Part shown: positions 22,536-23,105 of the stretch, in pieces
How the letters are laid out: each line of letters begins with the position of its first letter
Numbering within the stretch: position 1 is the stretch's first letter
Source of the DNA: Escherichia coli
GTDB taxonomy: Bacteria > Pseudomonadota > Gammaproteobacteria > Enterobacterales > Enterobacteriaceae
Strand: one strand, 5' to 3'
DNA length: 64,000 nt
Assembly (NCBI RefSeq): GCF_003334255.1
Contig: NZ_QOWU01000009.1
Position numbers and translations under genes: made by a program
Notes under the pieces: model-generated
The model's input: the letters and a program-made list of their open reading frames with translations, nothing else
Told to the model about the DNA's origin: nothing
The model's database searches: none

Positions 22536-23105
22536 GTGTGAACCCTCGCGATAATCCTATTTAAATTTTTGCTGAATAGATCACAGTCACGTTCTGTTTT
22601 GTATGAACTGTTTTCAGAGCCTGACTAAATATCCGTTTGGTCGTTACCGGCTTTAGCAAATACCTCACAGTGAATATTGGCTGATTAAAGCAGCGGCAAA
22701 TTTATGCACTGTGATAAGCGGCTTTTTCAGAGAGAAAGACTCTCTGGCGATGGGTTTATAGTTTGTACTGCGCAGATGTTAATGTTTTGTTTGCTGTTAT
22801 CTTATTGATATTTATCGGTCTATTTTTTGTTCTCAGGGCAGATGTCATTAGGTTTATAGATTAATCTGATCTACCCATTTGTGGGTAAAAATACACATAA
22901 TGCGGGTGACATAATAGTTAATTAACTTTTGTTAGCGTTTTGAAATTAAAAACACCGTTCACCTGAAGAGATATTAATTTTTAGCGATGATGGAGGGATA
23001 ATTATATTTGATCTGGCACAAGTTTTACTGATGAAGGATGTAACTTGTGCCAGGGGTATTTTGCATTACGGTAATAATTATTACTTACAGATAACCAGCG
23101 ATCCG

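Follow-up and report, generated by a model that had tools for sequence, protein, structure and literature searches.

The spacer between dcuR and dcuB in Escherichia coli (E. coli) is the known control region of dcuB and fumB, and it has already been characterized to the extent that its regulators and its bound FNR site are published. In the 64,000-nucleotide stretch of DNA analyzed here (the window) the spacer occupies positions 22536–23105, with dcuB downstream on the minus strand. The overall picture reached here, which is held at slightly better than even confidence, is that the main promoter is a distal one and that its transcript carries a leader of ~347 nt that masks the ribosome-binding site. 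The main regulated promoter would lie ~347 bp upstream of the dcuB ATG, with TATTTT (22893–22888) as its −10 hexamer and without a −35 element, and would start transcription near A22882. Phosphorylated DcuR bound at an invariant block (−29 to −72) would activate the distal promoter, FNR bound at TTGATCTGGCACAA (23008–23021, −132.5) would help activation, and NarL would repress from a 7-2-7 site over +1. In the ~347-nt leader the anti-Shine-Dalgarno (anti-SD) element CCCAUCGC is predicted to pair with the ribosome-binding region GCGAGGG ~200 nt downstream, and a covarying hairpin would stack beside the anti-SD:SD helix. Because the helix would mask the ribosome-binding site, little translation of the primary transcript is expected before the leader has been opened or cut. 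The 5′ end that has been mapped 20 nt upstream of the ATG (the −20 end) would then be either the processed, translatable species or the product of a weak second promoter.

A conserved module upstream of dcuB

The dcuB loci of 80 enterobacterial species were collected and 19 dcuR-dcuB spacers were aligned. Among the 80 species, an arrangement with dcuR in front of dcuB is confined to Escherichia, Salmonella, Citrobacter, Trabulsiella, and Intestinirhabdus. The spacer is 552–910 bp long in these genera, which puts the 570-bp E. coli spacer at the short end of the range. The alignment of the 19 spacers contains only eight conserved runs, and all of them fit a distal promoter followed by a leader. 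Their positions relative to 22882 are:

−197 to −190: AATTATTA, core of the palindrome GTAATAATTATTAC
−132 to −125: AGATCAAA, FNR half-site
−72 to −59: TGTTTTTAATTTCA, first half of the 44-bp block
−55 to −39: CGCTAACAAAAGTTAAT, second half of the 44-bp block
−15 to −4: TGTGTATTTTTA, containing TATTTT
+128 to +136: CCCATCGCC, in the leader
+331 to +340: TCGCGAGGGT, Shine-Dalgarno region
+351 to +356: TATTTA, a short run inside the start of dcuB

The FNR box, the 44-bp block, TATTTT, and the NarL-type 7-2-7 repeat form a module of fixed spacing in the 19 spacers. The centre of the FNR box is 121.5–125.5 bp from TATTTT in 18 of the 19 genomes and the 44-bp block is 57–58 bp from it in all 19, whereas the dcuB ATG lies anywhere between 322 and 585 bp from the module. 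The module is kept in register with TATTTT and not with the ATG, which is unexpected for elements that serve a promoter at −20. In the remaining genera sampled, Klebsiella, Raoultella, Serratia, and Proteus among them, the elements of the module are absent from the DNA upstream of dcuB.

The candidate distal promoter

The features of the candidate promoter are:

22888–22893, minus strand: −10 hexamer TATTTT within the invariant run TGTGTATTTTTA (22897–22886), 100% conserved (19 of 19 genomes)
22882, minus strand: putative distal transcription start (A), back-calculated from the FNR position of −132.5, with a leader of 347 nt
22911–22954, minus strand: nearly invariant 44-bp block TGTTTTTAATTTCAAAACGCTAACAAAAGTTAATTAACTATTAT, −29 to −72 from the distal start, delimited from the alignment, a probable DcuR site
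22872–22887, no strand assigned: NarL/NarP-type 7-2-7 repeat TACCCAC-AA-ATGGGTA, −5 to +11, a heptamer match that overlaps the distal +1

The TATTTT hexamer is followed by TACCC and then by A22882, an arrangement that has the A2 and T6 of a −10 element and a purine start 6–8 nt downstream. There is no recognizable −35 hexamer, with TATTAT standing 17 bp upstream of TATTTT, and a consensus scan reported no promoter; a promoter that depends on an activator and features no −35 explains the empty scan.

A distal start is implicit in the numbering used by Myers 2013, where Table 1 gives the FNR site as −132.5, counted from a start that derives from EcoCyc or Kim 2012. The start was assigned to 22882 because only this position yields −132.5 for the FNR site, while the −20 end would yield −459.5. 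The sigma-70 chromatin immunoprecipitation sequencing (ChIP-seq) data of Myers 2013 feature an anaerobically increased peak at ~4.34712e6, which corresponds to ~22888 in the window. Additional evidence comes from E. coli that had evolved in the mouse gut, in which mutations of the spacer were repeatedly selected: an A>T single-nucleotide polymorphism (SNP) at −354 and insertions of the insertion sequences IS2 at −338 and IS5 at −118. The SNP is located at window position 22889 and changes TATTTT to TATTAT in the dcuB sense, one step nearer to TATAAT. The IS2 insertion maps to +6 to +10, within the NarL-type repeat. Anaerobic dcuB expression was above that of the ancestor in the IS2 clone, while the SNP clone itself was not assayed.

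The 44-bp block features two invariant runs, 22954–22941 and 22937–22921, and overlaps the position of the missing −35 element. A DNase I footprint of DcuR reportedly extends from −359 to −400 relative to the −20 start. This corresponds to window positions 22914–22955 (approximately −32 to −73 from the distal start, a normal position for an activator) and coincides with the 44-bp block, which was delimited independently and is probably the DcuR site.

The two heptamers of the 7-2-7 repeat deviate from TACYYMT by 1 and 0 mismatches and form an inverted pair with a 2-bp gap. At least one perfect TACYYMT heptamer is present at the same place in 14 of the 19 genomes, and the drift stays within the degeneracy of the consensus. 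The placement of this repeat over +1 fits the known nitrate repression of dcuB, and the repeat is a predicted NarL operator. That the module serves the distal promoter, that NarL would act over +1, and that the gut-selected SNP would be a −10 up-mutation is a synthesis that appears not to have been spelled out before.

FNR binding in the spacer

Two FNR-like elements have to be distinguished in this region:

23008–23021, no strand assigned: FNR site TTGATCTGGCACAA, centre −132.5 from the distal start, bound in vivo (Myers 2013) and conserved
22805–22818, no strand assigned: FNR-like box TTGATATTTATCGG flagged in the first-pass annotation, judged to be a chance match inside the leader, +70.5

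The motif table of Myers 2013 lists TTGATCTGGCACAA for dcuB at K-12 version-2 coordinate 4347240 (window 23008) and scores it as bound ('+'). The FNR ChIP-seq summits in the same study, at 4,347,216 and 4,347,259 (K-12 version 2), correspond to window positions 22984 and 23027, and both are within ~30 bp of the bound motif. The Myers 2013 FNR data also show dcuB and fumB at 0.03–0.05 of the wild-type level in the fnr mutant. The site has 2 mismatches to the FNR consensus and is near-invariant in 18 of the 19 genomes, and it combines a consensus match, published occupancy in vivo, and conservation.

The first-pass annotation had pointed instead to an FNR-like box at 22804–22817. The box exists, with its position one base off; it is located at 22805–22818, where the plus strand reads TTGAT-ATTT-ATCGG (TTGATATTTATCGG) and the dcuB sense reads CCGATAAATATCAA. 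Counted upstream from the dcuB ATG, the distance is 270 bp to the near edge of the box and 276.5 bp to its centre. It is highly improbable that this box is a working FNR operator contributing to anaerobic dcuB control. It agrees with TTGAT-N4-ATCAA at 8 of 10 consensus positions (2 mismatches), features one perfect TTGAT half-site, and is retained in the three Escherichia species compared, but the match is no better than chance. The window contains 57 FNR matches with at most 2 mismatches (~1 per 1.1 kb) against 35.5 ± 5.3 in shuffled sequence, so that one or two such matches in a 570-bp spacer are unremarkable. The right half-site, ATCGG, has lost AA, the counterpart of the FNR-specific TT. 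The box lies in an indel-rich stretch, and in Salmonella and Citrobacter the region is replaced by longer, unrelated sequence that cannot be aligned. The 14-mer, in both orientations, is absent from the accessible part of the FNR motif tables of Myers 2013, and the FNR ChIP-seq summits of that study are ~170–215 bp away. Its centre is at +70.5 from the distal start and at −256.5 from the −20 5′ end, neither of which is a normal FNR-activating position; FNR usually activates from about −41.5, or from −61.5 and beyond in steps of whole helical turns. As a chance-level match that is conserved only within Escherichia, lies off the published ChIP peak, and is ill-placed, the box is no longer retained as an FNR site, and its resemblance to the consensus, inside the leader, is probably due to chance. 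The real FNR site is ~200 bp further upstream, since 23008–23021 is the bound motif beneath the ChIP summits.

A class II FNR promoter operating directly from 23008–23021 was considered and rejected. A conserved TAATAT-like hexamer at 22976–22971, found by eye, would place FNR at ~−50, which is nonstandard, and the sigma-70 summit is located further downstream than this hexamer. FNR-consensus matches are over-represented across the window, with none of 100 shuffles reaching 57. The window is also dense in anaerobic and acid-stress operons, including adi, mel, dcuB, cad, dcuA/aspA, and frd.

A leader predicted to mask the Shine-Dalgarno sequence

The elements of the leader RNA are:

22747–22756, minus strand: candidate anti-SD element AACCCAUCGC with the invariant core CCCAUCGCC (22754–22746), identified from conservation and folding
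22728–22746, minus strand: leader hairpin CAGAGAG-UCUUU-CUCUCUG, predicted to stack on the anti-SD helix, identified from covariation
22541–22551, minus strand: invariant Shine-Dalgarno (SD) region UCGCGAGGGU(U), in which GCGAGGG is predicted to pair with the anti-SD element, identified from the alignment and folds

A start at 22882 gives a leader of 347 nt in E. coli and of 311–574 nt in the other genomes, and most of this sequence is not conserved. The only conserved elements inside the leader are CCCAUCGCC, which is directly 5′ of the leader hairpin, and the SD region UCGCGAGGGU, and the two are complementary to each other. The minimum-energy fold of the E. coli leader has −75.9 kcal/mol (z = −2.7), and in this fold AACCC-A-UCGC (22756–22747) pairs with GCGAGGGUU (22549–22541), which is the SD region. 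The anti-SD 9-mer is the top partner for the SD 10-mer in 17 of the 19 leaders, out of 279–481 windows. The anti-SD:SD helix is present in 15 of the 19 independent minimum-energy folds with pair probabilities of 0.6–1.0, even though the leaders share no similarity between the two elements. In the long-range helix, which is 92% paired, five of nine pairs are invariant and two outer pairs have changed on both sides, being A-U in Escherichia, U-A elsewhere, and C-G in E. whittamii; in addition, one G-C pair becomes G.U. The calculated probability that the SD sequence is unpaired is ~0 in the long leader vs 0.3–0.8 in an RNA that starts at −20.

The leader hairpin features compensatory changes in 5 of its 7 pairs, 91% of the cells in the alignment are paired, and none of 500 shuffles matches the covariation score. 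The hairpin contains G.U pairs, which are compatible with the dcuB sense strand only. This covariation, including the G.U pairs, argues that the hairpin region, which is 190 nt upstream of the −20 end, is transcribed toward dcuB and selected as RNA. A role for the hairpin as an intrinsic terminator was rejected because it is not followed by a U-tract on either strand. An upstream open reading frame (ORF) that couples translation was also considered and rejected. The candidate, a 30-codon ATG ORF (MTSALRTKNRPININKITANKTLTSAQYKL) at 22756–22848 on the minus strand, stops short of the anti-SD element by 1 nt. E. albertii has lost the start codon of this ORF, and the other genera have no equivalent.

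An Rfam covariance-model scan of 21000–25000 gave no relevant match at E ≤ 1. Searches of the literature on a dcuB leader, untranslated region (UTR), small RNA, or RNase link found nothing relevant, and the sole related item describes pairing of SdhX in the dcuB-fumB spacer of Salmonella. The anti-SD helix and the adjoining hairpin, as known here from conservation and prediction, appear to be new to the literature.

The −20 5′ end and the number of promoters

The elements of the proximal region are:

22555, minus strand: classic dcuB 5′ end, 20 nt upstream of the ATG, mapped by primer extension; minor promoter or processing site
22570–22585, minus strand: CRP-like box TGTGATCTATTCAGCA with 3 mismatches and a conserved left half, identified from the alignment and a position calculation

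A table in PMC2760140 lists the primer-extension start of Golby 1998 at −20 and a start at −19 from DMTSS mapping, a method of the 5′-RACE (rapid amplification of cDNA ends) type. Neither method tells primary from processed 5′ ends. The putative −10 element of the −20 start, AATTTA, is poor and does not end in the key T; other genera have AATTGA there. The GG↓AUUAUC context at the −20 end fits the RNase E motif RN↓WUU. The length of the spacer had led the first-pass annotation to propose a long 5′ UTR or several promoters, and to name a short leader as one of two observations that would speak against its reading. The proposal is partly right. From published genome-scale data and the comparison of genomes, there is a second start, ~347 nt from the ATG, and it is probably the main one; a short leader beginning at −20/−19 has also been mapped twice, which formally supplies one of those two observations.

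A specific form of the favoured picture takes the −20 end to be a processing product of the ~347-nt transcript, which DcuR, FNR, and NarL would control and in which the CCCAUCGC helix would gate translation until cleavage or remodelling. This form is held tentatively, at somewhat less than even confidence. The same 5′ end could instead mark one of two genuine promoters, a distal one controlled by DcuR, FNR, and NarL and a proximal one at −20, with the long leader belonging to a second, translationally damped class of mRNA. The proximal promoter would use the CRP-like box at 22570–22585 and/or TTCATACAAAACAG, a weak FNR-like box at 22594–22607 that departs from the consensus at 3 positions in E. 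coli and at 2 in Salmonella and is centred at −45.5 from the −20 end. The TTCATACAAAACAG box is the only element able to support a proximal FNR-dependent promoter. These two boxes, the conserved left half of the CRP-like box, the moderate conservation of the proximal 60 bp, and the finding of the −20/−19 end by two methods are in favour of two promoters, as are the several dcuB/fumB transcripts that Northern blots reportedly revealed. However, the proximal AATTTA is both incomplete and unconserved, the mapping methods are blind to the difference between primary and processed ends, the sigma-70 and FNR ChIP-seq summits are at the distal module and not in the proximal region, and the centre of the CRP-like box, −22.5, is not an activating position. 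Two genuine promoters are considered rather unlikely.

The classical reading, in which dcuB starts only at −20, DcuR (~−380) and FNR (~−460) act remotely, for instance by DNA looping, and the remaining spacer is untranscribed regulatory DNA, is improbable. It accounts for the mapped −20 start and for the DcuR footprint that reportedly lies at −359 to −400 from it. It does not account for a module that is fixed in its internal spacing to the −10-like element but differs among genera by >260 bp in how far it lies from the ATG, for NarL heptamers that adjoin the −10-like element, for a sigma-70 peak at ~22888, or for a gut-selected SNP that improves the distal hexamer. The hairpin 190 nt upstream of −20 also covaries in the manner of an RNA, with G.U pairs in the dcuB sense, and its region is therefore taken to be transcribed.

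Several observations weigh against a main distal promoter and a masked leader. The 5′ end at −20/−19 was mapped by two independent experiments, and EcoCyc and RegulonDB take it as the dcuB promoter. No match to the distal start was found in the accessible Cappable-seq supplements in either coordinate version, and 22882 is a back-calculated position. The simple promoter scan is empty in the spacer, although this is expected for a promoter without a −35 element. Literature searches for the coordinates of the DcuR footprint found nothing. The FNR site at 23008–23021 is at a noncanonical activating position with either start (−132.5 for the distal one and −459.5 for the −20 end); in Myers 2013, FNR is at −41.5 in 19 of 23 activated promoters, which makes −132.5 unusual. 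With regard to the leader, the core of the helix is invariant, so the covariation comes from a few lineage events in the outer pairs, and conservation of the SD region is to be expected in any case, given that ribosomes must bind it. In two Citrobacter genomes the anti-SD element is weakened and no helix forms. To our knowledge, no factor or nuclease that opens the dcuB leader has been described.

Other features of the spacer and its surroundings

The remaining features are:

22536–23105, minus strand: dcuR-dcuB spacer, the dcuB-fumB control region, defined from ORFs, the K-12 annotation, and composition
23071–23084, no strand assigned: perfect 14-bp palindrome GTAATAATTATTAC, ~−195.5 from the distal start, with the conserved core AATTATTA

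The palindrome is just downstream of the dcuR stop codon and its centre is ~63 bp upstream of the FNR site. Its core is identical in at least 17 of the 19 genomes. Fur was considered as the factor that binds the palindrome and is unlikely, as dcuB-fumB is unaffected by fur in anaerobic Salmonella. In the chicken-gut isolate E. coli JX4-T, an IS1 element has inserted into the spacer at 23088–23096 with a 9-bp target duplication. This insertion, located between the dcuR stop codon and the palindrome, has counterparts in the IS2 and IS5 insertions that were selected in the mouse gut.

No convincing CRP site was found in the E. coli spacer, which features only candidates with 3 mismatches. The Escherichia leader is without ~130–180 bp that are found in the Salmonella and Citrobacter loci (at ~22796–22840 in the window). 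The conserved hairpin GTAGCA...TGCTAC lies in the extra 130–180 bp of these genera, as does a strong CRP-like box, CGTGA-N6-TCACA. From these sequences, CRP input may be wired differently in E. coli than in the genera that have the strong box.

The genes on the minus strand are ordered fumB (19471–21117), dcuB (21195–22535), the spacer, dcuR (23106–23825), and dcuS. The window is 99.99% identical to K-12 MG1655, the spacer itself is identical, and the spacer is found in 5415 of 5426 complete E. coli genomes. It is 570 bp long and poor in ORFs, and the K-12 and strain W annotations place zero features inside it. The RefSeq tags of E. coli W skip from WFL_RS22900 (dcuB) to WFL_RS22910 (dcuR), and a feature in the spacer has apparently been withdrawn. 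The K-12 annotation bears out the first-pass statement that this is the longest non-coding stretch in the window, with the 400-bp yjdM-rdcA spacer as the runner-up. The first-pass annotation also called the spacer AT-rich with multiple A/T tracts. The G+C content is indeed 36.3%, compared with 49.9% for the window, and there are six runs of A or T of at least 5; this composition is nevertheless ordinary for intergenic DNA, since the other spacers of at least 250 bp in the window have 31–50% G+C. The suggestion that FNR, DcuR, and other inputs are integrated here was correct, in that dcuB-fumB is known to be controlled by FNR, DcuR, NarL, and CRP; the repression by nitrate reportedly acts through NarL. 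A consensus scan of the spacer for promoters and terminators found neither kind of site. Because dcuR has no intrinsic terminator-like structure downstream, dcuSR transcripts may run on into the dcuB control region.

Comparison with known systems

The dcuB-fumB promoter of E. coli K-12 (Golby 1998, Abo-Amer 2004, Myers 2013) is the same locus with an identical spacer sequence. The K-12 descriptions feature the same activation by FNR, induction by C4-dicarboxylates through DcuR, repression by NarL, and dependence on CRP. The classical description counts from −20 and consequently places DcuR and FNR 360–460 bp upstream, whereas the distal start is favoured here. With that start, dcuB resembles class II activator-dependent sigma-70 promoters in which a response regulator is bound over the −35 region. 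It features a good −10 hexamer, no −35 element, and a candidate activator block that reaches ~−29. Unlike class II promoters, dcuB has an extra FNR site at −132.5, which is beyond the usual class I and class II positions.

The frdABCD promoter (~56110–56433) is located in the same window and is FNR- and DcuR-dependent like dcuB. TCGATCTCGTCAAA is the FNR box in the region upstream of frdA (56230–56330, minus strand), which also has an AT-rich stretch of the TTAATTAAATTAATCA type; by eye, this stretch resembles the dcuB block. The order of the elements is reversed between the two promoters: in frdA the FNR site is proximal (−45.5, Myers 2013 Table 1) and the AT-rich stretch is upstream of it, while in dcuB the FNR site is at −132.5. 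The two AT-rich stretches may hint at a shared DcuR recognition pattern with the opposite order of activators.

The proposed leader resembles that of adhE, which also belongs to a gene of anaerobic metabolism and features a ~300-nt leader with an upstream segment that pairs with the SD sequence. The long 5′ UTR of adhE reportedly occludes the ribosome-binding site until it is cleaved by RNase III. In both cases a shorter, processed 5′ end would be the translatable form, which for dcuB is a prediction. Unlike adhE, the dcuB −20 site resembles an RNase E site and not a long RNase III duplex, and it may be a promoter. A place for the dcuB leader among the SD-masking leaders is so far a matter of prediction and conservation.

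Significance

DcuB is the main anaerobic C4-dicarboxylate transporter, gut colonization by E. coli and enterohaemorrhagic E. coli depends on it, and in the mouse gut adaptive mutations have repeatedly arisen in its control region. The narrower lesson is that this is a known regulatory region in which the FNR box that had been flagged is not the functional one. If the distal start is true, the far-upstream DcuR and FNR sites become parts of a conventional activator-dependent promoter, the NarL site lies over +1, where a repressor is expected, and the gut-selected SNP is a plain −10 up-mutation. The leader architecture is conserved across Escherichia, Salmonella, and Citrobacter. If the SD-masking helix is true, it would be a new post-transcriptional checkpoint on DcuB, which is both a transporter and a co-sensor of DcuS and whose dosage also tunes the DcuS sensor.

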